A stretch of DNA of 64,000 nucleotides. Source: an uncultured virus (IMG/VR IMGVR_UViG_3300021400_000789) (taxonomy: Duplodnaviria; Heunggongvirae; Uroviricota; Caudoviricetes). Below the pieces are notes generated by a model. That model was not told where the DNA came from and ran no database searches. It saw nothing but the letters and a program-made list of their open reading frames with translations. The stretch lies in IMG/VR virus record IMGVR_UViG_3300021400_000789; one strand, written 5' to 3'. Both the position numbers and the translations under genes were made by a program. Every line of letters starts with the position of its first letter. The stretch's first letter is position 1. Positions 1 through 56,867 of this stretch are shown here, piece after piece.

Positions 1-357
1 CACAAGATTGTTTCCGACCTTATAGCTTATTCCGCCGCTCTGATCGTTAATAATAAGTTTGACCGCATTTGTCGGAGCGGTCAGCTCTAAATCCGTAACA
101 GCTACTTGCGGCTCTGCCATCGAGATTGCATTGTTTGCGCTGTCAATAAAACACCATGTTACAGACGCTGTAGAATCAGAATAAGCATTTATAACAAATT
201 TGTCCCCGGCAGTACAGTCAACTACTGCGTACATTCTTCCCACAGAACTTGGTATCGGTGTAAGGTCTATTGGTGTATCTGACGTTTTAATATAGTAATC
301 TTTTATTAGACTTATAACACCCGTTTGCGCACCTAAATCGGTCTTTTGATCAATATA
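1..357 (-). CDS. Start-less tail/receptor-binding protein cassette (partial, runs off window start)
   Basis: Manual translation: open frame after TAG at 358-360 reads YIDQKTDLGAQTGVISLIKDYYIK...LTAPTNAVKLIIND. There is no start codon before the KTDLG site, which resembles the LKSNLG site of the 2814-3905 cassette. Confidence 0.7.
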
Positions 358-1591
358 CTACGGAAATCTCGCTCCTGGAATTTGCTTTTACTCAAAGGCG
401 GGTTTAGATGCTGTAGAAAATGTACTTGATGATGTCGGATCTGTTTTTAAACAGGGGCTTAACGGGCATACATGGAGCGTTCTCGGTGATTCGATAACAG
501 ATGCAAATTCGACAATAGCGATAGACAACCACTATTATCACTTTATTAAGCGCAGAAATCCTAATCTGATATATAACGCCTACGGAGTAAGCGGCAACCG
601 GATGGCGGCGATGGCCGGAAGATACCAAAACATGAACTACTCTGATATTATCACCGTTTTCGGCGGCGTGAATGATTGGGGGCAGAACAATCCGACACCG
701 CTTGGAACAATTGACGACACCGGCACATCAACGTTTTACGGAGCTTTAAATACTCTCTGTACGGGACTTTTAACAGAGTTTCCGCTATCCTTGATTATAT
801 TTATAACTCCGCTCGGCAACAACGGTTTCGGAAGTTTTCCGACTGACAAAAACAGTTTGGGATTGTCGATTTATGATTATACAGATGCAATCATAGCATG
901 CTGCGCAAAGTACAAAATCCCTGTGCTCGACATTTGCCGAAACAGCATGCTTAATCCTCAGTTTGCTGGGCTTAAAGAGGCATATTTCTATGACGGTCTG
1001 CATCTGAATCCGAAGGGGCACGAGGTTTTATCATATCTCATAGAGTCGGAAATGTTGAAGCATTATATACCGGTTGTCAGTGATATTGACAATAAGGGAC
1101 GGCTGCTTGCTGCTTCGGACATTGATAGCAATATCGGTATTGACAATCTTGTTGTGAAGAATGGTACGCTTACATATGGCACATCAAGAGCGAATTGCAT
1201 CCTCCTTTTCAAGCCATCTGTTAAGAGAATCAGATTTACCTATGTCGTGACAGCGGGAGGTAGACCCGGCACAATCGAATGGACAGCGTTCGGGCTTAAT
1301 GGCACGACAGTCTATTGTACAGATGGTGGAAACACGTTTAAATTTGCTGTCAGCTCTAATAAGTATTCGGCAACAAAAGACAATACTCTAGCGGTCGTCA
1401 CAGATCCCAACAGCATCAACTTTGCGCAGAATATAAACAAACGCGCAGAGATCGTAATAGAAAACGGAGTGCAGAGTCTATATCTTAATGATGTTCTTAT
1501 TATGACAGTTACGAACTCCACAAGAATTGGATTCTGGGGGAGCGACACGATAAAGTTTAGGCTCGAAAACGTTAGGGTTTACGAGGACTGA
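350..1591 (+). CDS. SGNH/GDSL hydrolase tail cassette (start-less; first ATG at 602 lies downstream of the catalytic motif)
   Basis: Frame is open from 350 and encodes SKAGLDAVEN...WSVLGDSIT (block I), GGVND (block III) and DGLH (block V). Confidence 0.8.
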   Translation, partial: SIYYGNLAPGICFYSKAGLDAVENVLDDVGSVFKQGLNGHTWSVLGDSITDANSTIAIDNHYYHFIKRRNPNLIYNAYGVSGNRMAAMAGRYQNMNYSDIITVFGGVNDWGQNNPTPLGTIDDTGTSTFYGALNTLCTGLLTEFPLSLIIFITPLGNNGFGSFPTDKNSLGLSIYDYTDAIIACCAKYKIPVLDICRNSMLNPQFAGLKEAYFYDGLHLNPKGHEVLSYLIESEMLKHYIPVVSDIDNKGRLLAASDIDSNIGIDNLVVKNGTLTYGTSRANCILLFKPSVKRIRFTYVVTAGGRPGTIEWTAFGLNGTTVYCTDGGNTFKFAVSSNKYSATKDNTLAVVTDPNSINFAQNINKRAEIVIENGVQSLYLNDVLIMTVTNSTRIGFWGSDTIKFRLENVRVYED

Positions 1592-1684
1592 TTAGTAAAC
1601 TAAACGCCCGGATGCAAGTATACGCAATGACATTGTATGGCAGATCAAAAAGAGTGAGTGCGCTCATGATTACTGTGTGGGCGT

Positions 1685-2803
1685 TTAGTTCACTACGACT
1701 GTACACGTTGCCGTGTTGCCGTTTTTGGTAGTTGCCGTTATCGTTGCAGTTCCAGATGCCAGAGCTGTTACTTTTCCACCATAGACTATAGCAACACTAG
1801 GCGCACTTGATACCCACGTCAGAGTCATATCTGTCGGATTTGACGGTGTAAACAATCCCGTGAGCAAATGTGTATCACCAACCGACATTGACAATGATGC
1901 AGAATCAAGAGTCAGTGCCGTATCAGGAATAACGTCTGACACACCTTCTGGAGCGTATACACGCACCCATGCAACTTGTGTTTCCAGTTCTGTCTCCGCC
2001 TGTGTGCCGTTTAATTGTGGCAACTGATTGAACATAAGGAAGTGTGGTCTGCGAAAAGCGTTAAATGCACCGACATTTGCATCAGATATAGCAAAAGTTT
2101 CCTTTAAAACCCTGTCGCAATAGATTTTAATATAGTCCTCTGTCCACTCACATCCGTATATATGCCAGTTGGAAGCGTCTGTTGAAAGTGTTTCGTGTCC
2201 GCCCGTCACGTGATGATTTGTTTCCAGATTATCCGCCCAGTGTTTCGTTGTCGTGACAGTGCCGTTGTCCGCTTCTGCTATGTCGATTTCTCCGCAGCTA
2301 GCCCACAATAAACCTTTTGAAGCGTCCGCAACCGCGTTCGGGTCACAAACTCTGTCATATCCCGCGCCCATCGTCCAGAATGTCGAGTGATATACCGGAT
2401 TATCCGGGAACTTCATTTTTGCTTCTATCAGTCCATAGCGGAACTCAAACAGCCCTTTTGTCCAGATAAATGCACCTGTCCAGTCTGTGAGCGGCATATC
2501 AGAATCTTTCTTGTTGTTATAATGCAGATTTCCGTCTTGACAGAAAGCGTTATTTGCCAAGTTGTTTTGATGCATATAGTACCTGTTGGAAGTGTAATAG
2601 CCATATAAATGGTTCCATTTCTGACTATCTACAGCATTTACGTCAAACTCATCGTGCCAAACTAATAACCTTCCCGGAACAATGTCATCAAGACCGCTTA
2701 GCAACTCATTATCATCAATATCATAGGCTTGCGAAAGTGCCGCCCCACTAACACTATATGCGGCATCTGTCGCAGTCCCGTCTAATAAATATACAGGCAT
2801 CAC
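1685..2803 (-). CDS. Glycoside hydrolase family 16 domain protein with C-terminal Ig-like (Big_2) domain
   Basis: WHDEFD, YGLIEAKMK, catalytic GEIDIAE (ExDxxE) and WHIYGCEW; C-terminal TWVSSAPSVAIV..GKVTALASGTATITAT; GGAGG RBS upstream. Confidence 0.85.
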   Translation of the reverse strand: MMPVYLLDGTATDAAYSVSGAALSQAYDIDDNELLSGLDDIVPGRLLVWHDEFDVNAVDSQKWNHLYGYYTSNRYYMHQNNLANNAFCQDGNLHYNNKKDSDMPLTDWTGAFIWTKGLFEFRYGLIEAKMKFPDNPVYHSTFWTMGAGYDRVCDPNAVADASKGLLWASCGEIDIAEADNGTVTTTKHWADNLETNHHVTGGHETLSTDASNWHIYGCEWTEDYIKIYCDRVLKETFAISDANVGAFNAFRRPHFLMFNQLPQLNGTQAETELETQVAWVRVYAPEGVSDVIPDTALTLDSASLSMSVGDTHLLTGLFTPSNPTDMTLTWVSSAPSVAIVYGGKVTALASGTATITATTKNGNTATCTVVVN

Positions 2804-2813
2804 ACACCTCCAC

Positions 2814-3905
2814 TTAGAGTCGTTTAAATTTTATGGACTTAATAAATGCCCCATTAAATGCCGGAGCTGCGGACTGGAAACATCCGATGCCAGTAAAAGC
2901 TATATACTGAGTGGTGTCCGTGTTCTGTGTGAGTGTTACAGGATTACCATCAATAGACAATTCATACACATTGTTGTTGGCTGTGATTTCATAGATGTGA
3001 TACTCGTTACTATTCGAATCTGCAATCGGTGAATTTGTCCCGTTAATTCCAACTGCGACCATACCATGTTCTGATGATGTTCCAAGCCCCGAATCCAAAA
3101 CCATTTTTATTCCTCTGAACTGATTGGGACTTACTACAGCGTTCTGAATCTGGAATTGCGGGTTATTGTTCGCCGCAAACACATGCTGTCCATTACTGTT
3201 CTCGGAATATGATTTTATTTCAATCTGCATTTTGCAGTTTCCGGTATACTCAAAATCAAGTTTCGGTGTTTTTGCAAAAAGAACTCCGTTCTCAGTCGTA
3301 AAATCGTACTCGGTAACCGTCATTCCATCTGGGAGCGTTCTGCTTGACGAATACCATTCATAGTCCCAATAAGGGGCTGATACAGTGACGTTAAATGTTG
3401 TGGTCTTTCCTTCTCTCGCAACCGTGACAGTGCTTGTTCCAGTGGCAAGAGTCCCAAACAGCGTATAATCAGTGATTACTCTCGATGTGCCGTTGCTATA
3501 ATACCCGGTAACGACAAGATAAGCCTTCAGGTCATTCAGCGGAGTTGTCGGATACACTACTGCGCTGCCCTGTGTGAAAACTGCCTCTATTCTCACTAAT
3601 CCCGTGTTTGGGTATAAAGCGCTTTCCAACGCATCATAGTAGGACTGACAACCCGTACCGCTCCATGCTACATGGTCAAAGCACGCAAGCAGAGCAGTTT
3701 TTACATCATTCGACAAACCATCAACATTTTCGAGCGCTTCTTCTACGGCACCTAAACCCGCCTTTGCATCGTCTATATCAGCCTGGGCTGCATTGATCGC
3801 GTCAACGATACTGGTTTTCACGGATGTGTCAAGGTTCGCAATGTTACCTAAATTGCTCTTTAAGGAACTAAATGGCGTCCGGATCCGGGAGACAGTGCTG
3901 CACAA
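2814..3905 (-). CDS. Tail fibre/receptor-binding cassette with Ig-like domain (true start probably supplied by recombination)
   Basis: Coiled N-terminus LKSNLGNIANLDT..IVDAINAA; Ig-like segment LVVTGYYSNGTSRVITDYTL..GKTTTFNVTV; no RBS at the predicted start. Confidence 0.7.
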   Translation of the reverse strand: MCSTVSRIRTPFSSLKSNLGNIANLDTSVKTSIVDAINAAQADIDDAKAGLGAVEEALENVDGLSNDVKTALLACFDHVAWSGTGCQSYYDALESALYPNTGLVRIEAVFTQGSAVVYPTTPLNDLKAYLVVTGYYSNGTSRVITDYTLFGTLATGTSTVTVAREGKTTTFNVTVSAPYWDYEWYSSSRTLPDGMTVTEYDFTTENGVLFAKTPKLDFEYTGNCKMQIEIKSYSENSNGQHVFAANNNPQFQIQNAVVSPNQFRGIKMVLDSGLGTSSEHGMVAVGINGTNSPIADSNSNEYHIYEITANNNVYELSIDGNPVTLTQNTDTTQYIAFTGIGCFQSAAPAFNGAFIKSIKFKRL

Positions 3906-4053
3906 TCCGACATGATTTCTGCACTCTCTGGATGAAATCTATATATTGTTGCAGGTGGTATCAGTCGTGCTTTATCATTGATGCAGGGGTGCTTTTTTTG
4001 TCTCCGGATATTCAGATTCCACCCTCCCCAATAATCAACAGGGAGGGACGTTT

Positions 4054-5064
4054 ATGTCAGATTCATTTGTTGATGGTTTCAGCCTTAAGCTGGAACCATA
4101 TTTCACACCTGAGCAGATCAGGCAGATCAAAGAAGCGCTCTATATCTACACGCTTGGGTTTACGATAGTGCCCATCACTACGGAACTGGCCGTAACTGAA
4201 TACTGCCTTCCGCAAGCGTATCATGTGTACATCGCATCAAAGGAGCAGGACGGCAAGTTATCTTTGCGATCGCGGGAGCAGTATTGCCTCTGTATTGAGG
4301 ACATGTTGTATTTCCTTCGAATTCCTCTGGACGCGATTACCGTGAACCATATCCGTATGTATCTGCAGCATATATCCGTGAACAAGAAGACCGGAAAGAA
4401 GCTCAGTGCGGAAACCCTGAACCAGCGGAAGAGTATCATTAAGTCATTCTTCAGGTGGCTGTACGAAGAGGAATATATTGCAAAGGACCCGTCCGTAAGG
4501 ATCAAACGCGAGAAATCACACTCAAAGCCCAGGGAACAATATGAGGATACAGAAATCGAGAAGATACGTGATGCCTGCATGTCTGAGAGGGACACAGCGA
4601 TCGTAGATCTTCTGGCATCATCCGGGATACGAGTATCTGAATGCGTGGGCCTTAATATTGAAGATGTAGATCTTGAAAACCGTGAGCTTGTTGTCTACGG
4701 GAAAGGCGGGAAGTGGCGGACTGCTTATATAGATGCAAGGGCTGTGGTGAGCATCCGGAAGTATCTTGATTCAAGGACAGATGACTGCGAGGCGCTGTTC
4801 GTATCGAAGAAGAAACCGTTTCAGCGAATAGGTGCCCCTGCGGTGCGCAGATGCCTTCACAGCTTGTCTTTTGAAAGCGGGGTACAGAATATTATCCCGC
4901 ACCGGTTCCGCCACACTGTAGCGACCAGAGCGATTGAGAAAGATATGCCAGTCGAAAGTGTTCAGGCTATGCTCGGGCACATGGATATAAAGACCACAAT
5001 GCATTACGCGCATGTGAACAAGGAAAAGGTTAAAGCTGATCACAGGCGCTATATAGGGAAGTAA
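4054..5064 (+). CDS. Tyrosine recombinase (XerC/D-like), probable cassette invertase
   Basis: GIRVSE, GKGGK, HRFRH, LGH and TTMHY catalytic motifs; GGGAGGG RBS; directly adjacent to the cassettes. Confidence 0.9.
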   Translation: MSDSFVDGFSLKLEPYFTPEQIRQIKEALYIYTLGFTIVPITTELAVTEYCLPQAYHVYIASKEQDGKLSLRSREQYCLCIEDMLYFLRIPLDAITVNHIRMYLQHISVNKKTGKKLSAETLNQRKSIIKSFFRWLYEEEYIAKDPSVRIKREKSHSKPREQYEDTEIEKIRDACMSERDTAIVDLLASSGIRVSECVGLNIEDVDLENRELVVYGKGGKWRTAYIDARAVVSIRKYLDSRTDDCEALFVSKKKPFQRIGAPAVRRCLHSLSFESGVQNIIPHRFRHTVATRAIEKDMPVESVQAMLGHMDIKTTMHYAHVNKEKVKADHRRYIGK

Positions 5065-5072
5065 ACTGACAT

Positions 5073-5100
5073 GGAGCGTATATCGCTCCTTTTTTATTTT
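5073..5100 (+). terminator. Intrinsic terminator after the recombinase
   Basis: GGAGCG-tatat-CGCTCC followed by a T run. Confidence 0.7.
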
Positions 5101-5196
5101 ACGGAGGTGATGTTCATGTCTTATTCGAGAGACTCACCGTAACATTAGAAAACGACAAGATTACTGCATGTTAATTTAGAAAGGAGATTAAGGCCA

Positions 5197-5637
5197 TTGT
5201 CCCTAAATGATTTGCTCACTATGCTCCATATATCCCCGGGCGCAGGAATGTTCATTGTCCTGGCAGTGTTCCTCTCGCTCGTTCAGATTGCACCCATAAA
5301 AATCAATCCGTGGGATACTATCCTGGGATGGATCGGGTCTAAGATCAATGCCGGCGTAAAGAAGCAGCTCGATGCTGTCAGCCAGCAGAGCAACGTCCAG
5401 AAGGAAGAGTTCCGGGAGTTCTGGATCGATTACCAGCGTGAGGCAATCCTGCGGTTCTCACGTGAATGTTCGCAGGATATGTCGCATAGCAGAGAAGAAT
5501 GGAACCACATATTGGATATCATCAAACGATACGAGACATTCTGCAGCAAGCATGAGATCGCGAACGGAGTGATAGAGGAGAATTCTTCCTATCTCCGGGA
5601 CCTTCACAAAAAGCTCCTGCAGGAACACAGAATTTAA
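5197..5637 (+). CDS. Holin-like membrane protein
   Basis: N-terminal TM segment and VQIAPIKINPW motif; located in the lysis module; AAAGGAG RBS with TTG start. Confidence 0.6.
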   Translation: MSLNDLLTMLHISPGAGMFIVLAVFLSLVQIAPIKINPWDTILGWIGSKINAGVKKQLDAVSQQSNVQKEEFREFWIDYQREAILRFSRECSQDMSHSREEWNHILDIIKRYETFCSKHEIANGVIEENSSYLRDLHKKLLQEHRI

Positions 5638-5649
5638 GGAGGATTTTGC

Positions 5650-6081
5650 ATGAACAATTTATTTTTCAACATCTGCATGGCATTGATCGTAGCGATCGCA
5701 GGCATCGTAGCCAAGACACTTCTCCCGTACCTCGAAGAGAAACGCGCTGAGGTGGAAGCGAAGCTCCGGAACACAAGATGGTCGTGGGCCGTTGACATCG
5801 TCGACGCGGTTGTGCGTGCGGTAGAACAGACCGTCGAGGAAGACATCCATGGCGAGGATAAAAAGCGGATCGCCATCAAATATATTGAAAAACTGCTCAA
5901 CGACAACGGGATCGCCCTCACATATGACGAGATAAACACACTGGTCGAGGCTGCGGTCAATACAATGAACTCCGGATTCATTTCTGTGGAAACAGAGGGG
6001 TCGGTTCCTGATGAAACAGAACCGGTAGAAGCGGATCCGGTTATCGCATCTCAGCTCTCAGCGCTCGCTGTTGACTGCTGA
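5650..6081 (+). CDS. Phage holin (LL-H-like)
   Basis: N-terminal TM, AVRAVEQ..GEDKK..A and LVEAAV motifs; precedes the endolysin. Confidence 0.75.
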   Translation: MNNLFFNICMALIVAIAGIVAKTLLPYLEEKRAEVEAKLRNTRWSWAVDIVDAVVRAVEQTVEEDIHGEDKKRIAIKYIEKLLNDNGIALTYDEINTLVEAAVNTMNSGFISVETEGSVPDETEPVEADPVIASQLSALAVDC

Positions 6082-6113
6082 AGATGAAGAATAAAACTGA
6101 ATAAACAATGCAG

Positions 6114-6141
6114 GGCGGGGACTTCGGTCTCCGCCTTTTTT
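6114..6141 (+). terminator. Intrinsic terminator between holins and endolysin
   Basis: GGCGGGGAC-TTCG-GTCTCCGCC then TTTTTT. Confidence 0.7.
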
Positions 6142-6154
6142 AGTGAGGAAAAGT

Positions 6155-8359
6155 ATGAATAAGAAAAATTTACACGTTCTTTCCAATATTATCGCTGCCG
6201 TTGAGAGCGGCGGACAGATCTACAGTGAGAATAGAGATTGGACAGCATACGCCGGAGCCTACGCTAACACTCCCGGGGAGCACACGTGCACCCTTGGACC
6301 TTATCAGGCGTACGGGGACGAGGCGCAGGAGCTTATACAGTATATCTGGGATCACCACGAGCATGAATTCCGGAAATGCGATCCGAATATGATCATCTAT
6401 CGAAAGCTGTATGACGGCCAATTTACCTCATGGGTCGAGATGCGGTGGAACCCGAACAGCACAGAAAAAGCAATCCTCATTAAACTGCTCGGTACGGAAG
6501 CCGGGCATGAGGCGAGCGAGTATGTATTTCAGGAACGCCTTAATAAGTACATCACCAGGGCCGAGAAATTCGGTGTGAAGACCACATACGGCCAGATGAT
6601 GTGGGCGCAGATCCAGCATCTGGGCGGCGTAGGCCCTGTGACACGTGTATTTAACCGCTGCAATGGAAATTATTCCCTCGACAGCATTATGAGCGCCCTG
6701 ATGGCGGATCAGGCTGATTCATCAAGCAGTAACCAGGTCGGGGATAAGATCTATTGGAGCAGGCATCAGAAATGTGTTGAGTTTATTCGTAAATACGCCG
6801 AAGAGGAATACGACGGAGGGGAAAGGAAAGAGGAGGACAAAACGATGAGCCAGCTTCAGAAAGGACTCAATCTTCTCGGTCAGTGGGTAAAGGAAGGCCA
6901 TGTCGAGCCAAATGGAGACGATGACATCATCAAGGCATACAACGACCAGCGGCCGGCAGGTACCTATAAGATGTCAATGTCTGACAGCTGGTGCATGGCG
7001 TCTCAGTCAGTAATGGCGCACATCGTAGGGCTTAATCCGACAGGCAAGGCGGTAGGAGCTCCGAACACATGCGACTGTGATGTGGGAATGCAGTGGTTCA
7101 AGAATCAGGGCAGATGGTATTCCCGGATGCAGGGACAGCTCGGAGACCAGGTGTATTATACATGGCACAGCGACCCGTCTGATGCGCAGCATGTGGGCAC
7201 GATTACTGCGATCGAGGGCAGCTATTATTATGTGACCGAGGGTAACTACCAGGACCGTGTCGCCGTCCGGAAAATCGCAAAATCCGATTCCCGGATCATT
7301 GGCGTTGGTCGTCCGAAGTGGGACAGCACAGAAGTTGAAAAAGAGACAGCTCCGACGCTTGACAATCCCGCTTCAAAAGACAATGCTCTGCAGGGGAAGT
7401 ATACAGTTAAAGAGGACTTGAATATCCGCTACGGTGCCGGCACTGACAAGACCAGAATCGGCACATTGACAGGCGGCGCAGAAGTTTCCTGCGATGGATC
7501 CTATACAGCTGTCGGTGATAAGAAATGGTACTACGTCAAATCCAGTCTGGGGTATGGCTTTGTGTCCGGAGCTTATCTGACGAAGATCGTGGAACTTCCG
7601 AAGGTGAGCGATATCACTGTCGCCACGTTCATCGGCGCGATTGATGCGGTCTACCAGACGGCACACAAGGGAAATTACTCTTATGGCAACAGCCTGGCAA
7701 CGCCGCCGACGTCTGACAAGATCATCTCCTGTGATCGTCTGATCGCCAAGGCCATGTATGACCTTGGATTCACCGACCAGCCTAAGGGCGGTATCACTGT
7801 AGGGCATATGGAAACATACCTTACTAAGTGGGGGCTTAAGAAGGTCACTGATCAGAGCAAGATCAAGGGTGGCGATATCATTCTTTTCAAGGCTGACGGC
7901 ACGGCGCAGCCCACAGCTGCATGGCACGCATTTGTCGTGACAGATTATGATCACGTCACAAAAACATGCAGCAAGTACGATATGGGATCTCAGAATCGTA
8001 TTAACAGTGCGCAGCCGTTCACGAATGTGGACTTTGATCAGTGGCCGGCAAAGTCCTTCTATTGTGCGTTTACCGGTTTCAAGGAAGAGCCGAAGGAAGA
8101 GCCGAAGCAGAGCTCCGGAAAGCTGAATGAAACTCCGAAGTGGGTGGCAAAAGCAACGACCGGCTGTAATGTCCGTGTTTATGCAGGCACGGAATATCCT
8201 AACATCAAGTCATATCCTCAGCTGGCGAAGGGAAACCTGGTCGACGTCTGCGATTCCGTCAAGGCGAAAAACGGTGTGATCTGGTATTATGTACGCATCA
8301 AAGCCAATGATAAATATGTGCATGGTTTCGTGTCGTCCAAGTGCCTTGCAAGTGTGTAA
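6155..8359 (+). CDS. Modular endolysin (lysozyme-like + CHAP + SH3b + second peptidase-like + SH3b)
   Basis: AVESGG N-terminal domain; CHAP motifs SWC...HVG...EGN; two SH3b-like repeats (LNIRYGAG..WYYV..GFVS and CNVRVYAG..WYYV..GFVS); SCD...WH segment. Confidence 0.85.
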   Translation: MNKKNLHVLSNIIAAVESGGQIYSENRDWTAYAGAYANTPGEHTCTLGPYQAYGDEAQELIQYIWDHHEHEFRKCDPNMIIYRKLYDGQFTSWVEMRWNPNSTEKAILIKLLGTEAGHEASEYVFQERLNKYITRAEKFGVKTTYGQMMWAQIQHLGGVGPVTRVFNRCNGNYSLDSIMSALMADQADSSSSNQVGDKIYWSRHQKCVEFIRKYAEEEYDGGERKEEDKTMSQLQKGLNLLGQWVKEGHVEPNGDDDIIKAYNDQRPAGTYKMSMSDSWCMASQSVMAHIVGLNPTGKAVGAPNTCDCDVGMQWFKNQGRWYSRMQGQLGDQVYYTWHSDPSDAQHVGTITAIEGSYYYVTEGNYQDRVAVRKIAKSDSRIIGVGRPKWDSTEVEKETAPTLDNPASKDNALQGKYTVKEDLNIRYGAGTDKTRIGTLTGGAEVSCDGSYTAVGDKKWYYVKSSLGYGFVSGAYLTKIVELPKVSDITVATFIGAIDAVYQTAHKGNYSYGNSLATPPTSDKIISCDRLIAKAMYDLGFTDQPKGGITVGHMETYLTKWGLKKVTDQSKIKGGDIILFKADGTAQPTAAWHAFVVTDYDHVTKTCSKYDMGSQNRINSAQPFTNVDFDQWPAKSFYCAFTGFKEEPKEEPKQSSGKLNETPKWVAKATTGCNVRVYAGTEYPNIKSYPQLAKGNLVDVCDSVKAKNGVIWYYVRIKANDKYVHGFVSSKCLASV

Positions 8360-8418
8360 AAAGTAATTACAATTATCATTACTTGAATAACTCAACGCTA
8401 ACTTGCCGGTAACGCAAC

Positions 8419-8526
8419 GATTCGAGTTAGATTCGAGTTTAACTCGATTGAATTGAGTTAGTTCAATCGAGATTCAATTAAGGATTCAATCGAGAATGGT
8501 TCAAGCTGGTTCAAGCTGGTTCAAGG
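8419..8526. repeat. Degenerate short tandem repeats (GATTCGAGTT, TTCAATCGAG, TGGTTCAAGC x3)
   Basis: Read directly from the intergenic sequence. Confidence 0.7.
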
Positions 8527-8536
8527 CATAAAGATA

Positions 8537-8566
8537 GGGGCGGTCAATTCCGCCCCTCTTTTTTTT
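8537..8566 (+). terminator. Terminator at the convergence of the lysis and leftward operons
   Basis: GGGGCGG-tcaatt-CCGCCCC followed by a T run. Confidence 0.75.
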
Positions 8567-8574
8567 ATGCCCGA

Positions 8575-9102
8575 TTATTGGTGGTTCTTCTCATAGAGTT
8601 TCCGGATATACCGTTTTCCGTCCACCTCGATGATGTCCGACCGCTCCTCCTGAGAGAGCTGGCTGTATGCGTACATGCCGCGCCTATTAGATTCATACTC
8701 CGCCTCGCTGACCACATACACATCACTGACGACGCCATCAGGATCGCTCTGCCTGAACAGCCAGCGCTGCGCTTCCTCGACCTGACGGCACTCCTGCAGT
8801 GTACCGCGTGCAATAATCATCTCCCGGAATTCCGGCTGCCCCGGCCGTCCAATATTCTCATTTGATATTGTCAGGTAGACCATATCGTTCTCACTGACTT
8901 CCGGGCTGCAGGACACGATCTGCGAGATATCAACGTTGAGCGCTTCGCAGAGCCTGTCAATGACCTTGATACTGACCGGTTCGTTCTTCCCCATCTTAGT
9001 GACGGTTCCCCTTGCAAGCCCGACCTTTTCAACCAGGTCCTTCTTTTTCATGCCCTTATCGACCAGCGTCTTCCAGAGCGGGTTGTAATTATACATCTGC
9101 AT
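8575..9102 (-). CDS. Cro/C1-type HTH protein with C-terminal extension
   Basis: YNPLWKTLVDKGMKKKDL..VSIKVIDRLCEALNVDISQIV. Confidence 0.8.
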   Translation of the reverse strand: MQMYNYNPLWKTLVDKGMKKKDLVEKVGLARGTVTKMGKNEPVSIKVIDRLCEALNVDISQIVSCSPEVSENDMVYLTISNENIGRPGQPEFREMIIARGTLQECRQVEEAQRWLFRQSDPDGVVSDVYVVSEAEYESNRRGMYAYSQLSQEERSDIIEVDGKRYIRKLYEKNHQ

Positions 9103-9619
9103 TCCTCCTTATAGTGCATGAAGCGTTTGCCATGGTGACAAGGTCATCCGTCGTGTACGAGTTGAATACGGCAGATACGTCGATGCCGTACAACTGTTGG
9201 TCGAATGGCTTTTTCAATTCCTCGGCGATGTCAGAAAACAGGCACCGGGTAAACTGCGTTGAAAGCCCGACCATGCGGAGGCTGTGGACGATTCCGGTCC
9301 GGGAATCCGCGAATATGATCTGAACGCTGAGCCCCTGCCCGTCTTCCGGATCTTCCAGCGTGCCGAACTTCGACAGGTGCGGTGAGTACGGGGCATCTAC
9401 CCAGTTCAGGCTCCCGAATTTGAAGAGCATCATGAACACGCTCCCCACCTTAGCGTACCGGATATCGATATCCTCATCGAACTGCCTGATCTCTTCCGGT
9501 GTCGGACTGTCAAATAACACATAGAGCAAGCCACCACCGTCGTTGATGTCGAACATGACACGCTCGTTCCCTATCAGATTCTTGTTCACCTTTCCCACCT
9601 GATACATTTCGAAATCCAT
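9089..9619 (-). CDS. Hypothetical protein
   Basis: 176 aa ORF with AAAGGAG RBS, overlapping the neighbouring gene. Confidence 0.7.
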   Translation of the reverse strand: MDFEMYQVGKVNKNLIGNERVMFDINDGGGLLYVLFDSPTPEEIRQFDEDIDIRYAKVGSVFMMLFKFGSLNWVDAPYSPHLSKFGTLEDPEDGQGLSVQIIFADSRTGIVHSLRMVGLSTQFTRCLFSDIAEELKKPFDQQLYGIDVSAVFNSYTTDDLVTMANASCTIRRNADV

Positions 9620-9634
9620 AATTTTCTCCTTTCC

Positions 9635-10144
9635 TCACTCCCATGCACGGGAGAAATCCGCATCCTTGAACAATTCCTGCAGACCGGAGAGCTGCTTCAG
9701 CCTGAGGAGCTCTTCCGCGTCCATACCGATATTTTTCATGATCCATGCGTCCGACATACCTGCGGATGACAGCTCCGCCACGATGTTGACCATGAGATCT
9801 ATGCTGTGCTCGCCCCTTGCCCGGTTGTGGCGTATCGTGCTGGCCATGCGTTCCGTGACCGGCTTATCGATCACGGACACGGGGAGCAGGCCATGCTCAC
9901 GCTCGTAGATGTCCTTGTGCAGGAGCATCGTCGTGTACCGGTGATACCCGTCCACGATTTCATATACATCCTCTTCCGGGATGTAGTAGCAGACTATAGG
10001 CATTGTATAGCCGTCGGACTTGATGGACTGGTAGAGCAGTTTCATTTCGGGCGGGGCAACATGGTTCGGGTTCCATGTGTTCGCCCTGACCTTCTCGATC
10101 GGGACCGCCTGTATGCCGTACACAGGGCTTTTGAATTCTTCCAT
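9635..10144 (-). CDS. ParB/Srx-like protein (IbrB/YbdM-like)
   Basis: NTWNPN, DGYTMPIV, IVDGYHRY and RHNRARG; start re-set to MEEFK behind AAGGAGG. Confidence 0.85.
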   Translation of the reverse strand: MEEFKSPVYGIQAVPIEKVRANTWNPNHVAPPEMKLLYQSIKSDGYTMPIVCYYIPEEDVYEIVDGYHRYTTMLLHKDIYEREHGLLPVSVIDKPVTERMASTIRHNRARGEHSIDLMVNIVAELSSAGMSDAWIMKNIGMDAEELLRLKQLSGLQELFKDADFSRAWE

Positions 10145-10154
10145 AACTGCCTCC

Positions 10155-11456
10155 TTACAGGTTCTTGTATTTCTCGATAGCTGCAGACCTTCGCATCGCC
10201 TCCGCCTTGGTGGGAGCGAAGCCCATGTATTTGCATAGATAATCGTTCTTGATGATGCAGACACACATCCGCTTGTAGGATGGGACATCCTTGAATTTCG
10301 TGACCGCAGCCTCGTCCGGATAATCCTCGAAGGTGCACACGTCCTTGGTCGATGTCTTGCACTTCTTCCCCCGGTTCTCGAACTGAACTCCGGATTCTTC
10401 CAGTTCCCGGATGGTCTCCTCGTCAAGGGCACCGCCCCTGTCGTGCCAGAACTTGATGCTTGTCTTCAGCTTGGCAAGGTAGTTCGCCCTCGTCTCCTCC
10501 GGGAGCGTGTTCAGCAGGAAGAAGCAGTATTCCTTCCATGTGAAGTGTGCCGGCTTTGTGATGTTCTTCCAGCCCATGGCAGTCGTCCCGCCATAGAGGG
10601 ATGCCATATTGACGCCGTTGACCCTTCCGACCATCTTGCCCCAGTTCACCGGGTCGATCACCTTGTAGAGGTGGAGGGAATCCATTGCGCAGTCATTGAA
10701 CGGACTGGCCACCCGCATCTTCGCTACCGGCACGCCTGCCTGATAGTAGAGGTCATACAGCTTGTTATACGGCTTGCCGAACCGGGCATTGTACGTCCAG
10801 ATGTCCGGGGCTGTCCAGTCATACAGCGGATATGCGTTTGCCAGCATATTGCTCTCGGCAAGGATGTAGTTCGTGTCCTTATAGGCGCGCACCTTGTGGT
10901 TGCCCTTGATAGCCCGGAACCGGTTCAGTGATTCGTCGGCGCGGATCCCGATCAGGACTGCGGTCTTCTTCCCGGTATCCTTCTGGAACCATCGCCCGAA
11001 CTCTTCCTGCACGTCATAATCGGCTGTCCCCTTGCGGAATGGGAACGGCACATTGTCCTCGTTGATCACGTACGGATTAACGGGCATCTCACGCACCCAG
11101 AGGTGCTGCGCATCCCTGTCCCATGGAATCCAGTAAGCTCCATCCATACGGCACGCGCACTGGGCGCTGAATGGAAGGCAGAGCCAGAATTTCCGGATGC
11201 CCGGGAACTGGTCAAGGAAACAGTCGGCAACGAAGTCAGTGGTCATCTGGTACTGCGCTTCGTAATCAAGATGGAACATGGCAAGGTCTTCAAGCCGGCC
11301 GTGCTCCGCAGCGTAGTCATACGCCAGGTTCATAAGGACAGAACTATCTTTCCCTCCGGAGAAAGCGACAATGACCTTGTCGAATTCCGAGTAGATGTAC
11401 TCAACCCGTTCTTTTGCGGCTTCGTACACGTTTTTGTTCAGGTACCTTTTTTCCAT
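10155..11456 (-). CDS. PAPS-reductase-fold / DUF3440 protein (IbrA/YbdN-like)
   Basis: PP-loop FSGGKDS, GIRADESLNR, YPLYDW, MRVASPF, PSYKRMC; start re-set to MEKRY. Confidence 0.85.
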   Translation of the reverse strand: MEKRYLNKNVYEAAKERVEYIYSEFDKVIVAFSGGKDSSVLMNLAYDYAAEHGRLEDLAMFHLDYEAQYQMTTDFVADCFLDQFPGIRKFWLCLPFSAQCACRMDGAYWIPWDRDAQHLWVREMPVNPYVINEDNVPFPFRKGTADYDVQEEFGRWFQKDTGKKTAVLIGIRADESLNRFRAIKGNHKVRAYKDTNYILAESNMLANAYPLYDWTAPDIWTYNARFGKPYNKLYDLYYQAGVPVAKMRVASPFNDCAMDSLHLYKVIDPVNWGKMVGRVNGVNMASLYGGTTAMGWKNITKPAHFTWKEYCFFLLNTLPEETRANYLAKLKTSIKFWHDRGGALDEETIRELEESGVQFENRGKKCKTSTKDVCTFEDYPDEAAVTKFKDVPSYKRMCVCIIKNDYLCKYMGFAPTKAEAMRRSAAIEKYKNL

Positions 11457-12834
11457 TGTTCGATCTCCATTTCTTCTCCTTGATCTGATCAACATTCTTC
11501 CGGAACGCATCCGCAAGGTTCTCCTTCCGAAGAAGGTTATCCCGGATGAAGTCGTCGATCGTGCCGGCAGCGCATATGTCGTAGATATGAACCTCATGTT
11601 CCTGCCCGTACCGGTGGACGCGGTCCTCGGCCTGCGCCCTTGTGGCGTAGTCGAAATCGTTATTGTAGAAAATGACGTTATGGCAGAACTGCAGGTTCAG
11701 CCCGTATGCTCCGCACACCTTATTCGCGACAAGGAACTGTGTCCCTTCCCGGAAGAGGGCGCGGTTCTGCTGCCGTTGTTTCGCTGTGCATCGCCCTGTG
11801 AACTCCACACAGCTCCTGTCAAGGCTCCTGAGAAGGTCCATAATCTCTTTAGCCTCGCTCCTGTACTTGACGAATATGATGGCTTTTGAGGAGCCTATCC
11901 CGGTGATTATTTCCGAGAGCGCCTGAATTCTTGGGTTGTCTTCCGGATCCGAAAAAATCTCCTCGGTGGTCATCCTTGCGTCCGCAGCTGATGTGACGAC
12001 CCGGCCGGATGTTACGTGTTGGAGTGCGGTGAAGAATTTGTAGATCGTCTCGCTCCGGAACTCGTCCACGTTCTCCAGGAAGGTGAATTTCGTATCATCA
12101 TAGATACCGCTCTGCTCCATGGACAGCTCAAAGTATTTCACGTGATACCGTTTCTCCGGGAGCGGGATGCATTCCTCCTTCTTTACCTGATAGGTATATG
12201 GTGAGATCTTCTCCGCAAGGTAAGCCGTATTCAGTACCCTGAGGACCTGGTCTGTCTTGTATTCCCCGCCGTTCGGGAGCTTGATGGTGCGGTATTCGAG
12301 ATGGTTGGCCGAAAAGCTGTAGTAGGACTTGTAGCCGAGTATCCGCCAGTCAAGTATGAAGAACTGGCCGAACAGGTCTGCTTCGTTCTTGCTTATCGGC
12401 GTTCCGTTCAATATCAGCTTGTAGGTGCAGTGCCTCGACAGCTCCACGATACGGCTGGAGCGTATGGCGAATGGATTCTTGCACAGCGAGGATTCGTCCA
12501 CTATGAGGAACACTTTGTATCTGTGCACGAGGTCGATGAGCTTCAGGTACAGCCGGCTGGAAGATGATATGGATTCAATGCCCTTGATCACGATCCTGTC
12601 CGGCATCCCTCCGCAGTGATAGATGATATCCTCACGCAGGTTCTTCTTGACGCTGCAGGGGCACAGCCAGAGAACGGCGTTGACCTTTCCCTTGTCCATG
12701 CGCCTGCTGATCAGCTCGAGGGCCGTCCTGGTCTTTCCGGTACCCTGCTCCATGAACAGGGCGCCTACCTTCAAACGCCCAAGTTTCCCGACGGCCGCTA
12801 CCTGATGGGGGAGCAGTGATGTCTCAATCTTCAT
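11401..12834 (-). CDS. SNF2-like superfamily 2 helicase
   Basis: MEQGTGKT, IVDES, LNGTP, YGLNLQ and QAEDRVHRYGQ. Confidence 0.9.
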   Translation of the reverse strand: MKIETSLLPHQVAAVGKLGRLKVGALFMEQGTGKTRTALELISRRMDKGKVNAVLWLCPCSVKKNLREDIIYHCGGMPDRIVIKGIESISSSSRLYLKLIDLVHRYKVFLIVDESSLCKNPFAIRSSRIVELSRHCTYKLILNGTPISKNEADLFGQFFILDWRILGYKSYYSFSANHLEYRTIKLPNGGEYKTDQVLRVLNTAYLAEKISPYTYQVKKEECIPLPEKRYHVKYFELSMEQSGIYDDTKFTFLENVDEFRSETIYKFFTALQHVTSGRVVTSAADARMTTEEIFSDPEDNPRIQALSEIITGIGSSKAIIFVKYRSEAKEIMDLLRSLDRSCVEFTGRCTAKQRQQNRALFREGTQFLVANKVCGAYGLNLQFCHNVIFYNNDFDYATRAQAEDRVHRYGQEHEVHIYDICAAGTIDDFIRDNLLRKENLADAFRKNVDQIKEKKWRSNNGKKVPEQKRVRSRKRTG

Positions 12835-22149: not shown

Positions 22150-23256
22150 TCAGGGCTCCCCGGGCACATCCTCGTTGATGCTGTTGATCTGCTCGTCAAG
22201 GCGCTTCGCGAGCTCGATGTCACGTCCTGCGTACAGGTGTGAATATGTCTTCATCGTGGTCGTCGCGTTCTTGTGACCGACCCTGTCGGCGATCTGTTTC
22301 ACGTTGAACCCCATATCGATGAGCATGGACACATGCGAGTGACGGATGTCGTGGATCCGGATCGGCGGGAGCTGGGCCCTCGAAGTGCAGTTCCGGAACT
22401 CGTTCCACAGCCCTGCCCTCTTGAAATAGAATATCCTCTGGTCCGGAGCGCAGTCAATATCCTTTACGTACTGCTTGAGCTCTTCGTATACGGATTTCGG
22501 GAGCGTGACGATGCGCCGGCCGGACTCCGTCTTCGGCGTGAGGATGATGTCCTTCCCCTCGACGTTCGCGAAGTTCTTGTAGATGTCAAGCGCGTATGTC
22601 TTGTCTATGAGATCCCTCGGCGTGAGAGCCAGGAGCTCCCCTTCCCTAAGACCGGAATAGAACAGGACGTTGAACGCCACGTGATACGGCCTCTTGTCCT
22701 CATGGGCAAGGTATATCTCGAACTGGTCCTTTGTCCATATCTTCATCTCTTCGGCCTCGTACTTCCCCATCGGCCCGACGAGCCGGCAGGGGTTCATGGT
22801 GAGCCCGTAATACTTCATGCAGAAGGTCATGACGTTCGACAGCTCCCTGTGCATGCTCGCAAGGTACGTGTCCTTGAAAGGCTTGCCGTTGGCGTCCCTG
22901 TACTGGATCATCTCGTTCTGCCAGGCACGGATCGTGTTCGCATCGATATCGCATATCCTCATCTCGCCGAAATACGGCACGAACTTCGAGTTGATCAGCG
23001 CTTTCTTGAATCTCATCGTCGTCGGCTTCAGCCTGAGAGCGCAGTCGGCCTCATAGTCCTGTATCATGTACTTGAACTCTATCGTCGGCTTCTTGCCCTG
23101 CCCATTGATGAAGTCCCTCTCGAATTCGAGGGCTTCCCTTCTCGTCGCGAACCCTCTCTTTGTTGTCCGTTTCTTTTCCCCCTTCCAGTTGGTATAGTAG
23201 AAGCTGGCATACCAAAGCGTCTTGCCTGCAGTGTTCTGGTACTTGTAAGCGGGCAT
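22150..23256 (-). CDS. int: Phage integrase (tyrosine recombinase with arm-binding N-domain)
   Basis: WYASFYYTNWKG..KRGF, GLREGE, TPKT, HDIRH, VGH and TMKTY. Confidence 0.92.
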   Translation of the reverse strand: MPAYKYQNTAGKTLWYASFYYTNWKGEKKRTTKRGFATRREALEFERDFINGQGKKPTIEFKYMIQDYEADCALRLKPTTMRFKKALINSKFVPYFGEMRICDIDANTIRAWQNEMIQYRDANGKPFKDTYLASMHRELSNVMTFCMKYYGLTMNPCRLVGPMGKYEAEEMKIWTKDQFEIYLAHEDKRPYHVAFNVLFYSGLREGELLALTPRDLIDKTYALDIYKNFANVEGKDIILTPKTESGRRIVTLPKSVYEELKQYVKDIDCAPDQRIFYFKRAGLWNEFRNCTSRAQLPPIRIHDIRHSHVSMLIDMGFNVKQIADRVGHKNATTTMKTYSHLYAGRDIELAKRLDEQINSINEDVPGEP

Positions 23257-23272
23257 AACTACCTCTGTCATT

Positions 23273-28164: not shown

Positions 28165-28613
28165 AGATCATCAAGGTGGACACTGACAATAATACCGAAG
28201 TCCTCGATTTCCCGGAAGGCACGATCATGGAAGAGCTTGAAGCCCTGAGAACCATGGTGGGACCGAAATGCAGGCTGGTAGAGCATGTGCGCCCCATGAA
28301 GCTGTACACAGTGTTCGGCGCACCGTCCAGCCCCAACCGGATGAAAAGCTCCGCGGTGTCGATGCTCGTCGACGAGGAAGGCATCCTCAGCGGGCTTCCG
28401 CTGAACCATCTCGGCAGCTGGCTGTACGGCACTGAGAAACACGGACACCCGATCGTGGGGAACATACTTTTCGTCGGAGAATACGACACGGGTGACGGTT
28501 ACAGCTTCTGCGGTCTTTCCGATGAAATGCTGAATAAGCTGCTCCCGCAGATCAAGGGAGTGGCCGACATGATAAATACATTTATTATCTCCGAGGGAGG
28601 TGGAGCGGAATGA
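28161..28613 (+). CDS. Hypothetical protein (DUF3846-like)
   Basis: MLVDEEG..LPLN..PIVGN. Confidence 0.65.
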   Translation: MKIIKVDTDNNTEVLDFPEGTIMEELEALRTMVGPKCRLVEHVRPMKLYTVFGAPSSPNRMKSSAVSMLVDEEGILSGLPLNHLGSWLYGTEKHGHPIVGNILFVGEYDTGDGYSFCGLSDEMLNKLLPQIKGVADMINTFIISEGGGAE

Positions 28614-31600
28614 GAATTTTGCATACGGCCGACTGGCATATCGGCGACTTTAAAGGCCCTGTGAAAGACGGGCGGAACCTTAGATTCGATGATACTGCGG
28701 ACTGCCTTGATGCCCTCTGCAGGAAAGCTGAAGAGATACGGCCGGAACTGGTCCTTATCTCCGGGGACATCTTCCATCAGGAGCAGGTCGGCCCGGTAAG
28801 GTACGGCAAGGAAGTCATCCTTGCGTCAAGGACGATCGGACGGCTGGCGGACGTTTCCGGATGTGTCGTAGCGATGCGCGGCACACCGAACCATGACGGA
28901 CAGAGCCAGTGGGACGTCCTGCAGGAGATCCTCGACGGCTTCGACAACGTGGTGGTGACAACAGAACCGCATATCGTTGAATCGATGTTCGGCACGATCG
29001 TCTGCATCCCCGGATTCAACAAGCAGGATTTCAGGGCGAAATACCCCGGGCTTTCCGCAGACGAGGAAGACCGCACATGGACAGAAGCGATCAAGACGAT
29101 GGTCATCGGGATGAGAGGCATGTGCAAGGCAGGCAAGCCGGCGTTCCTTATGTCCCACTACACCGTTCCTGGCGCTTCTGCAGAAGGATCGCAGGTAGCG
29201 TGCTTCGCGGATTTCGAGCCCTGCATCCCGAAGGAAGCCCTTATCGCAGCGAACTACGACGGCGTGTTCCTCGGGCACCTGCACAGGCCGCAGCAGATCG
29301 AGAACATGAATTCCGGGTTCTATTCCGGAGCAGTCAACGCCCTGCGCTTCTCGGACGAGGGGCAGGAGAGGGGCTTCTGGATCCACACGTACGAAGGAAT
29401 CGAGCGGACAGGAAGCGAATTCGTGGAGACGCCCTACAGGCGCTTCAAGACGATCGAGTGGTCCTTTGAGGATGTCGACAATTACCTGAGCTTCGGCAAG
29501 GCTGCGCTTCTCACCATGGGCCTCGATATCAAGGACTGCATTGTCCGCATCAAGTACAGCTGCACCAGCGAGCAGAAGAAACGCCTCAACGTACCCGTGC
29601 TCCAGACGGAGCTTGAGGAGCTCGGCGCTTTCTATGTCGCATCGATCGAGGCGGAATCCATGATCGAGGTCAACAACCGCAACATCCTCTCCGAGGAAGC
29701 CGACCCGCTCATGTGCCTGAAGGAATGGCTGGAAGAAAAGAACTACAAGGATCCGGATAAGATCGCTGAACTCGCGGAGCCGATTATAGCCGCCGCGAAG
29801 GCATCCAGCACGACCTATTCCATGTCCGGCGTGTTCTCCCCGGTAAGCATCAAAGTACAGAACTACCGCACCTACAAGGAAGCGGAATTCGATTTCGACA
29901 ATGTGACCTTCTGCTCCATCAACGGAGTGAACGGAGCCGGCAAGTCATCGCTCTTCATGGATGCTATCAGCGACTGCCTGTTCGAGATTACAAGGGAAGG
30001 CGATAAGAATTCCTGGCTCCGCGCTACGGACGACACAAGGTCAGGCTCCATCGAGTTCGAATTCGATATCGGGAACCAGCGGTTCCGCGTCACAAGGACG
30101 AGGACGAAATCCGGAAGGGGAACGGTGAACATCTCAGAGCTCGGTGAGAACGGCGAGTGGAACAGCCTCAGCAAGGAGAAGGCCAACGATACGAACAAGG
30201 AGATCGAGAGGATACTCGGCATGGACAGTATGACCTTCCGCTCCTGCGCCCTGATCATGCAGGACCAGTACGGTCTCTTCCTCTCCGCCGGCAAGGATGA
30301 CAGGATCGCGATCCTCGCGAAGCTCCTCGGCCTTGGCATCTACGATGTCATGGAGCTGGACACAAGGAAGCGCCTTGGCGACGCGAAGCGCGAGCTCATG
30401 GCACTCAAGGAAGAGGAACGCATCAAGAAACAGCAGATCGAAGACAAGGGCGACGCTGAAGCGGAACTTGCCGCTGCGAACGCTGTCCTTGTGGATTACC
30501 TGCAGAAGAAGCAGGATGCCGAGGGCCGAAGGACGGAGTTCCTTAAGACGCAGGCTGAATACAATGGCGCTAAGACAGCGCTCGACCGGGCCAGCAGCGA
30601 ATACATGGCATCCTCCAGGAAGCTCAGTTCGAAGCAGTCGGCTTACGACCAGCTGGGTGAGCGTGTGAAGTCGATTGACGAGTCACTTTCCGATGCACCT
30701 TTGATCAAGGAAAGCGCTGGCGAGTACCGCAGGATCGTGAGCGAGATGGAAGCGCTGGCACCGTCTGTAGCGCAGTACGGCGCGCAGAAGAAGCTCCTTG
30801 AAGATACGCAGAACCGGCAGCGCAGTGCCGAGGCCGAGGCATCAAAACAGCGTTCCCGGAAGAACCAGCTGCAGGTATCGCTCGACAACCTCTATACGCC
30901 TCCGGCGGATTATAACGAGCGGATCGCGGAACTTAGTGACCTTGAGAAGGAGCTGGCAGATTTTTCCGAACGTTATAAGCAGGTGACGGCGATCAAGCAG
31001 AGATGGCAGGAAGAGGAACAGGAATTCTCACGCCAGTCGCTTTCCTTCGAAAATGCGATCGGCAACCTCGACCAGCTGATCAGGCGGGCCATGACACAGG
31101 AACAGTACATGAAGGATTCCGGATGTATCGATGCGGAGAATGCGAACTGCAAGTTCCTCGCACAGGCAAAGACGGAGGTCCAGTCGATCCCATCCCTGAT
31201 TGAACGCAAACAGGAACTTGAGAAGGATTACACCGAATGCAAGGCAACGCATGAGGTGAGGGAACAGGACTTCAATTCTGAATGTGAGGCTGTCGGCTAT
31301 GACTATTCTAGGCACAGCGAAGTAGCTGCACGGATCCGTGCGCTGACTTCGTATAAGGACGTAAGCCGGAAGGCTGCACATTCCGAAGTCCAGAGAGCCG
31401 CTATAACGGCTCAGATAGCCGAGGTAGATAAAATTATCGCTGACAGTGATGAAAACGCATCACAGCTCAATTTACGCGCTCAGGAACTAACGCAAATCGT
31501 TACAAACCTCTCGGAATCCGTTTCGAAGCACGAAGAACTGAAGACCCAGGCGAACAGGTTAAAACCGTTCATGGAGAAGGAAGCCGCGCTCCCGGTGCTG

Positions 31601-56848: not shown

Positions 56849-56867
56849 TGTGAAAGGAGCGGACAGC

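Follow-up and report, generated by a model that had tools for sequence, protein, structure and literature searches.

A candidate tail-fiber shufflon beside a tyrosine recombinase in an uncultured rumen phage

What are three long reading frames that lack proper starts doing beside a tyrosine recombinase gene in a phage genome? The question is raised by positions 1 to 5064 of a 64,000-nucleotide stretch of DNA (the window) from an uncultured virus of the Caudoviricetes, IMG/VR record IMGVR_UViG_3300021400_000789. A previous reading of the letters made without database searches (the sequence-only reading) took the layout for a tyrosine-recombinase shufflon of receptor-binding proteins, and our analysis arrives at the same layout. 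We consider 1-5064 to be the recombinase-proximal part of a DNA-inversion shufflon of tail-fiber (receptor-binding) cassettes, with a probability of about 0.6. The argument draws on the recombination sites, their codon phase and pairing, an intact recombinase, an expressed partner in two relatives, and one flipped segment between sites b and c in a related lineage.

Stop-to-stop reading of 1-5064 and a count of the motif confirmed the earlier description of three long start-less frames (A, B, and C) in alternating orientation, each at an in-frame AAAG-N5-TTTAG. This motif occurs four times in the 64 kb, always within 1-5064, against a mean of 0.20 copies in shuffled sequences (0 of 100 shuffles reach four), and its N6 form has zero matches. 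All four copies, sites a to d (Table 1), share one codon phase and encode the peptides KTDLG (a), KAGLD (b), KAGLG (c), and KSNLG (d). Sites b and c are an exact 15-nucleotide (nt) inverted pair. The spacers GACCGA, GGCGGG (present twice), and GAGCAA had been read correctly. Their differences, earlier regarded as an anomaly within one set of sites, are instead a matter of classes, in which b equals c and d equals a pair of sites in the relative L001; the further classes GGCTGA and CGCCCA occur in relatives. A looser search of the window alone for CTAAA-N6-TTTAG with one mismatch returned 3 matches versus 0.76 expected, a number that 5 of 100 shuffles reach and that is not significant.

The earliest possible starts lie well inside two of the frames (GTG 243 in A and ATG 602 in B), and that of frame C is TTG 3905, before which no Shine-Dalgarno sequence was found when the sequence was read by eye. 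The stop TGA at 347-349 precedes frame B. In cassette B the catalytic GDS of SGNH block I (485-493) stands upstream of ATG 602, as the sequence-only reading had noticed. The 413-aa frame matches PF13472 over residues 44-226 (E value of 5e-19; 70 bits against a cut-off of 32.9), which places cassette B, block I GDS included, in the GDSL family, and it also matches PHROG 5240, "tail fiber protein" (E value of 6e-43). SGNH relatives of this cassette occur fused to several different fiber N termini. A close relative was not found in IMG/VR, and in a set of 5.8 billion proteins the nearest SGNH relatives are 49 to 63% identical, none of them fused at this site.

Cassettes A and C are likewise related to the ends of fibers in other phages. 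The DNA of cassette A from site a onward is 97% identical to the expressed fiber of L040, in which an A-type cassette is fused to a fiber N terminus of about 100 residues. Upstream of site a the two are unrelated, and the identity of the 45-nt flanks is 0.16 upstream and 0.93 downstream of the site. C-type ends are fused to at least five different fiber N termini (L034, L035, L036, L037, and L043). An AF2 (AlphaFold 2) model of cassette C has a mean predicted local distance difference test score of 77, and Foldseek aligned it with lectin or glucanase beta-sandwiches at modest template-modeling scores of 0.35 to 0.55. The GH16/Big_2 helper gene that travels with cassette C has its own GGAGG ribosome-binding site and ATG, and it also follows the C-type fibers of L034, L036, L042, and L043. 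A separate observation concerns L035, where a 248-residue fiber (334-1077) has a 25-residue N terminus (MANKPLKSIKFPGL...) joined directly to a C-type end; such a fiber implies that little constant sequence is needed by these proteins.

The enzyme beside the cassettes was described by the sequence-only reading as an intact tyrosine recombinase just before the lysis genes, and this is what we find: it matches PF00589, the XerD-aligned motifs are kept (GIRVSE, GKGGKWR, HRFRH, LGH, and HY), and a holin and an endolysin follow. Its best NCBIfam match is of the XerA/integron type (206 bits against a cut-off of 220), and neither this score nor those for XerC (161 against 335) and XerD (147 against 330) reach the cut-offs of these dimer-resolvase families. 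The score against the integron integrase model TIGR02249 (IntI) is 83 against a cut-off of 265, which does not fit an integron, and the cassette ends bear a 16- to 22-nt site of the double-strand type; an attC-like hairpin was not seen at them, although no search was aimed at one. The recombinase lacks an arm-binding domain and is separate from an arm-type integrase at 22150-23271, which is presumably the true integrase of the phage.

The constant 5' gene had been placed upstream of the window, and two relatives carry what was predicted. In L001, a 64,978-bp IMG/VR record whose recombinase is 98% identical and which matches the window collinearly from 3751 on with 96% identity, a fiber gene begins at ATG 3689 behind AAGGAG and runs through a 21-residue leader, site d, the shared segment, and a c-type site into a cassette unrelated to A, B, and C. 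An inverted silent copy of site d and the segment adjoins the recombinase of L001, where it follows the start-less stub that is also present in the window, and the inverted repeat of 112 to 116 bp brackets two converging sets of cassettes. This repeat was the sole match in a self-BLAST search for inverted repeats, because shorter sites fall under the BLAST threshold. L046 has the same tail genes, leader, and segment as L001 and, besides a third cassette, also contains the central element and, on the opposite strand, a large cassette. The shared segment of the window is 94 to 95% identical to both arms of the L001 repeat and to L046. Among the three sequences, the identity of the 45-nt flanks drops from 0.96-0.98 to 0.24-0.27 at the c-type site, and the homology ends exactly there. 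The expressed partner, with its ATG, ribosome-binding site, 21-residue leader, site d, segment, and c-type site, is present in both relatives, and for the phage of the window it would lie outside the stretch. The end of a contig in metagenome run X2 (same sample as run X1) continues past 3867, and inspection by eye identified the continuation as the L001 leader in complement. An exact 40-mer from the window start had zero matches in IMG/VR, as did a blastn search of 1-5100 among GenBank phages, and L041, a metagenome contig recovered through cassette A, stops at window 84 and adds nothing upstream. Record 1 of X1 extends past position 1 of the window by about 2.7 kb.

Taken as a shufflon, the locus would work as follows. 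The adjoining recombinase would bind core sites in which a 6-bp spacer is flanked by the short inverted arms (C)TAAA and TTTA(G), and strand exchange would take place across that spacer, with sites of the same spacer pairing. All sites share one codon phase (A-AAG-nnn-nnn-TTA-G), so that every exchange would be in frame. Recombination of b with c would invert 394-3765 and bring cassette B to the shared segment in place of cassette C and its GH16/Big_2 helper. Recombination of d with an upstream inverted d, as in L001, would join the segment to a promoter, a ribosome-binding site, and the 21-residue leader, and cassette A would need a partner for site a. We infer that the recombinase acts on these sites, with pairing limited by spacer class, and that the switch is still in use and alters the host range.

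Inversion junctions, expected at these sites by the sequence-only reading, were looked for in metagenome contigs. Twenty public runs contain parts of the stretch, all as contigs, and four of them (X1 to X4) were compared; uncovered stretches in X2 to X4 and joints with sides below 30 (1696/3738 and 2318/3199) were left out of the junction evidence. A 96% identical variant in X3 (record 13, similar over 412-1711) has the complement of 3791-3748, that is, the shared segment and site c, joined to position 412, and the last 27 nt of the GH16 gene with the central element on the other side of B. Beyond 1711 it is joined to the complement of 418-330 and then to a cassette other than A, and the module of site a, stub, and site b is retained. 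To judge from this arrangement, record 13 has the b-c segment in the flipped state and appears to have subsequently lost C and most of the GH16 gene. A past b-c flip at the predicted sites is thus documented once, in a related lineage, and ongoing switching in the phage of the window is putative. A further joint in X2, 1593/3747 (depth of 23, side of 42), sets the shared segment and site c directly onto the start of the central element; this would be a fiber gene without any cassette, for which no explanation was found.

The recombinase has relatives 53 to 98% identical to it in 19 loci. A TAAA-N6/7-TTTA sequence lies within 800 nt upstream of the recombinase gene in 15 of 20 cases (window included), with a background of 0.185 per kb, and the remaining 5 have the same core with one arm changed; every recombinase relative examined has a site of the CTAAA-N6-TTTAG type beside its gene. 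In the wider family two sites stand out, site 1 within the fiber gene and site 2 at the 3' boundary (Table 1); both are readable as CTAAA-N6-TTTAG, alike in their arms but not in their spacers. Site 2, as an exact 18-mer, was found in 18 IMG/VR loci, some of which overlap with others of our set (L054 is L034, L060 is L014, and L065 is L015; L003 recurs under its own identifier). Wherever at least 1.3 kb of upstream sequence was available (16/16 loci), TAAAG-N5-ATTTA occurs on the same strand 1.37 to 2.88 kb upstream of site 2, as exact AAAGGCTGATTTAG in 12. The exact 14-mer of site 1 was found in 18 distinct contexts with 45-nt flank identities of 0.41 and 0.35. Since this set was picked by exact match, the invariance of the core is by construction, and what carries information is the number of contexts, together with the position and pairing of the site.

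Pairs of phages that are 92 to 97% identical in the flanks differ only between sites 1 and 2 (L004/L016, L004/L017, L004/L005, L016/L017, L009/L010, L012/L015, L054/L064, and L050/L062). Between L004 and L016, for example, identity falls from 1.00 to 0.36 at site 1 and returns from 0.40 to 1.00 at site 2. Phages without an adjoining recombinase show the same cassette swaps. The sequence-only reading had missed both the 3' boundary element and this wider pattern. In L009 (1221) and L010 (7531), we also observed an in-gene site CTAAATGAGCGTTTA that resembles the complement of the 3' site and is thus inverted relative to the site on the recombinase side.

Several observations weigh against a shufflon at this locus. 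The window contains neither the constant 5' gene nor an upstream d site or a partner for site a, all of which would have to lie beyond it. The arms of the sites measure just 4 to 5 bp, which is short for an Xer-type site, and the window has three spacer classes, whereas known shufflons use one core throughout. Among the relatives, 15 loci extend 3 kb or more upstream of the recombinase; of these, only L001 has inverted start-less cassettes (a minus-strand frame of 154 aa in L021 was left out of this check), and in the remaining loci the recombinase gene just follows the fiber gene. A recombinase relative lies within 1.3 kb of site 2 in 5 of 12 evaluable loci, the other 7 being without one. Run X1, which contains 99% of the sampled words of the stretch and may be its source, has one contig covering 310-5200 and no alternative junction at b, c, or d, a negative limited by the fact that contigs at approximately 13x drop rare variants. 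The contig graphs of X1 and X3 do fork at site a, where in X1 cassette A (depth of 25.8) leads either to the flank of the window (12.9) or to another sequence (11.1). An inversion polymorphism was considered for this fork and rejected. The fork most likely reflects a second, L040-like phage sharing cassette A, because each flank is present at about half the depth of cassette A and because record 12 of X3 (same sample as X1), an 8.3-kb contig, has the layout of L040: it combines that second flank and cassette A with equally oriented pieces of a diverged recombinase gene.

The fork also touches on the integrity of the assembly. The window might be a chimeric contig in which pieces of several phages were joined at a repeat; cassette A does stand in two contexts in X1, and contigs break there (at the window start and, for L041, at window 84). 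However, L041, a contig from an independent metagenome, is 99.99% identical over window 84-10357, a single X1 contig spans 310-5200, and both L001 and L046 have the same architecture. We regard an artefact of this kind as very improbable.

Cassette exchange exactly between two such sites in related phages suggests recombinase-mediated cassette exchange (RMCE), which in the laboratory uses heterospecific lox or FRT sites. This could be the main purpose of the recombinase and its sites: co-resident phages or prophages would swap the piece between sites 1 and 2 by two crossovers, the sites having the same arms and incompatible spacers, and the inverted silent cassettes would be stored exchange products, with inversion as a side reaction. 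Such a role is in keeping with the 18 loci that hold the site 2 18-mer and the site-1-type motif upstream of it in all 16 evaluable ones, with the 18 contexts of dissimilar flanks around the site 1 14-mer, and with the near-identical pairs differing solely between the two sites. One type of site, moreover, bounds both the same cassette with a new upstream part (site a versus L040) and the same upstream part with a new cassette (site c versus L001 and L046). The 3' site is conserved though it is non-coding, so that protein constraint cannot account for its conservation. Yet cassette ends are the edges of non-homology under any mechanism, the 7 of 12 site-pair loci without a recombinase within 1.3 kb show the same swaps, and zero recombination intermediates were seen. 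The arms are short, and between L014 and L040 similarity resumes 80 to 200 nt past site 2 and not at it. We think it unlikely that exchange between genomes is the main function, and doubtful, if somewhat less so, that the recombinase carries it out at all. With similar reserve, we raise the possibility of a natural RMCE system, in which co-resident rumen phages would trade fiber cassettes and their helper genes with precision and in frame, GACCGA, GGCGGG, and GAGCAA would define independent inversion circuits of one enzyme within a locus, and phages without the enzyme would serve as substrates in trans.

The same comparisons bear on a static mosaic, in which the start-less cassettes would be remnants of homologous or illegitimate recombination at a fiber linker (K-x-x-L-G), and the recombinase would have another job, such as dimer resolution, with no programmed inversion. 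K-A-D-L-G/C does mark the joint of N- and C-terminal parts in single-copy fibers, including that of L034, which has no recombinase; most of the recombinase-bearing relatives have no silent cassette, and X1 has zero alternative junctions. On the other hand, the frames of 119 or more, 413, and 374 codons are free of stops despite the missing starts. The codons of the motif are identical (AAG GCT GAT TTA G) in 18 diverged contexts, while the nearby conserved AADAKKTGD differs at synonymous sites between L014 and L040. The non-coding 3' site has the same arms, a site lies beside every recombinase gene examined, and the b-c segment is flipped in a relative. On these grounds a static mosaic seems rather improbable, and the inversion shufflon remains our preferred reading.

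The central element between the converging cassette sets shares its half-sites with the two-site family, since they equal the left arm and spacer of the relatives' 3' boundary site (site 2). It is 98% identical to that of L001, in the opposite orientation relative to the recombinase, and 95% identical to that of L046, in the same orientation as in the window. Its 69-nt core (1610-1678; L001 7211-7300) is 98% kept between phages with unrelated flanking cassettes and in both orientations; the core could be a spacer, a terminator, or an accessory site for recombination.

Elsewhere in the window, a second armless tyrosine recombinase (43434-44507, plus strand) shares 27% identity with the one at 4054-5064 along its entire length, and the 730 nt upstream of it contain no CTAAA-N6-TTTAG-type site. 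Scans for promoters and terminators yielded no excess over shuffles. There are two separate pairs of PAPS-reductase-like and ParB-like genes, one at 10155-11597 (minus strand) with 9635-10432 (minus strand) and the other at 62394-63548 (plus strand) with 63538-63999 (plus strand). In a comparison that covered the window outside 9000-44000, the parts 3751-9000 and 51737-64000 align in one order with the nearest record (G001, which is G002; 64,978 bp). Were that record circular, approximately 24 kb from within about 9000-51700 would be without a counterpart there, and the genes so affected would include those for an SbcC/Rad50-like ATPase (28610-32428), a methylase, PcfJ, and a DnaN-like clamp.

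Table 1. Features of the candidate shufflon and its surroundings; positions are those of the window except for sites 1 and 2, which are described from related phages
Feature	Position	Strand	Description
Frame A	1-357	-	119 codons, open at window edge
Frame B	350-1591	+	413 codons
Frame C	2814-3938	-	374 codons
Cassette A	1-332	-	5' part of start-less tail-fiber cassette, runs off left edge of window
Site a	330-346 (motif 333-346)	-	AAAGACCGATTTAG plus GTG; spacer class GACCGA
Stub between head-to-head sites a and b	347-392		46 bp; closes both frames
Site b	393-407 (motif 394-407)	+	CAAAGGCGGGTTTAG; spacer class GGCGGG; inverted partner of site c
Cassette B	408-1591	+	SGNH/GDSL esterase, then C-terminal domain of about 170 aa
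Central element between converging cassette sets	1593-1695		103 bp; inverted 17-nt half-sites AGTnAACTAAACGCCC at 1593-1609 and 1679-1695, 69-nt core
Helper gene travelling with cassette C	1685-2803	-	GH16-like domain (PF00722) and Big_2 (PF02368)
Cassette C body	2814-3751	-	Helical neck, Ig-like domain, concanavalin-A-like beta-sandwich
Site c	3752-3766 (motif 3752-3765)	-	Same 15-mer as site b
Shared segment between sites d and c	3767-3847	-	NIANLDTSVKTSIVDAINAAQADIDDA
Site d	3848-3861	-	AAAGAGCAATTTAG; spacer class GAGCAA; identical to both d sites of L001
Start-less leader stub, silent side	3862-3938	-	Same in L001
Armless Xer-like tyrosine recombinase, presumed invertase	4054-5064	+	PF00589 (E value of 1e-34) and SAM-like N-terminal domains; no arm-binding domain
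Terminator-like hairpin after recombinase gene	5073-5089	+	Consensus match only
Holin	5650-6081		Downstream of recombinase
Endolysin	6143-8359		After holin
Integrase with arm-DNA-binding domain	22150-23271	-	
Site 1 (relatives)	Inside fiber gene, joint of N-terminal part and variable end		(T)AAAGGCTGATTTAG; spacer GGCTGA
Site 2, 3' boundary site (relatives)	After last cassette gene, non-coding		AGTnAACTAAACGCCCATTTAG; spacer CGCCCA

Site-specific inversion switches tail-fiber C termini in the Min (plasmid p15B), Gin (Mu), Cin (P1), and Pin (e14) systems, of which Min has several crossover sites and cassettes. These enzymes are serine invertases that work with an enhancer and Fis, whereas the enzyme here is a tyrosine recombinase (PF00589) and does not belong with them. 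In the shufflon of R64/IncI1 plasmids, the tyrosine recombinase Rci acts on several inverted sfx sites, with one conserved arm and one spacer, at the starts of the C-terminal segments of pilV. That shufflon acts on the adhesin of a conjugative pilus, unlike the phage fiber considered here.

By layout, the locus is very probably of the type of the Rin shufflon, an assignment made by analogy of arrangement. Rin was described in prophages of Bifidobacterium breve and B. longum (Mavrich et al. 2018, PMC6109161) and also in those of Eggerthella lenta (PMC8778435). In the first report, start-less variable C-terminal cassettes of the receptor-binding protein are flanked by an armless XerD-like tyrosine recombinase that differs from the arm-type integrase of the phage, with a short site at the 5' end of each cassette and a further site past the 3' end of the expressed gene (PMC6109161). 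The window agrees with this in having at least two start-less cassettes, each behind a short repeated site and in both orientations, and an armless recombinase beside them that is separate from the integrase. The single identical core of Rin is not found here: according to the same text, Rin has one asymmetric 11-bp site (TTCCCTAACCC) and cassettes of 95 to 100 residues, whereas here the arms are palindromic, there are at least three spacer classes, and the cassettes measure 300 to 800 residues and include enzyme domains and helper genes. Also unlike Rin, the constant part is 21 residues (L001 and L046), and the host is a Clostridia-type bacterium of the rumen.

Another likeness is the tail-fiber shufflon of BV01-like Phocaeicola phages (preprint PMC13596623), a recombinase-flanked, multi-cassette inversion region over the distal end of a carbohydrate-binding tail-fiber gene. 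All configurations appear in read data there, so that activity is demonstrated there and not here, and the region spans 1.7 kb with a single 10-bp motif and three short cassettes. The exchange between sites 1 and 2 resembles laboratory RMCE and the Acinetobacter plasmid modules bounded by XerC/D-like sites (PMC5790767) in that one gene module, with a short Xer-type or heterospecific site on either side, occurs in different backbones. In Acinetobacter, however, the host XerC/D and resistance genes are involved, and laboratory RMCE is engineered, whereas here the recombinase is phage-borne, the fiber cassettes are in frame, and the exchange is putative.

Tail-fiber shufflons run by an armless tyrosine recombinase are thus already in print and have been known since 2018 (PMC6109161, PMC8778435, and PMC13596623). 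The present locus is distinct in its several spacer classes, its palindromic arms, its very large cassettes bearing enzymes and helpers, and a pair of sites that marks swaps across many phages. In the literature, supplements aside, we found no report of such a shufflon in rumen phages or of the exchange of fiber cassettes by a phage recombinase.

If the switch works, one rumen phage would command at least three very different fiber ends, namely, an SGNH esterase, a lectin-type beta-sandwich with a GH16 helper, and cassette A, and it could follow the variation of surface glycans in its hosts. Spacer classes that restrict pairing, if true, would constitute a natural orthogonal set of sites for one small recombinase, a possible tool, and would answer a question raised for Rin, namely, what prevents deletions between direct sites. 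The mosaicism of receptor-binding genes is usually ascribed to homologous recombination. The sharp boundaries of the two-site swaps in dozens of related phages offer a testable explanation of this mosaicism that is based on an enzyme.

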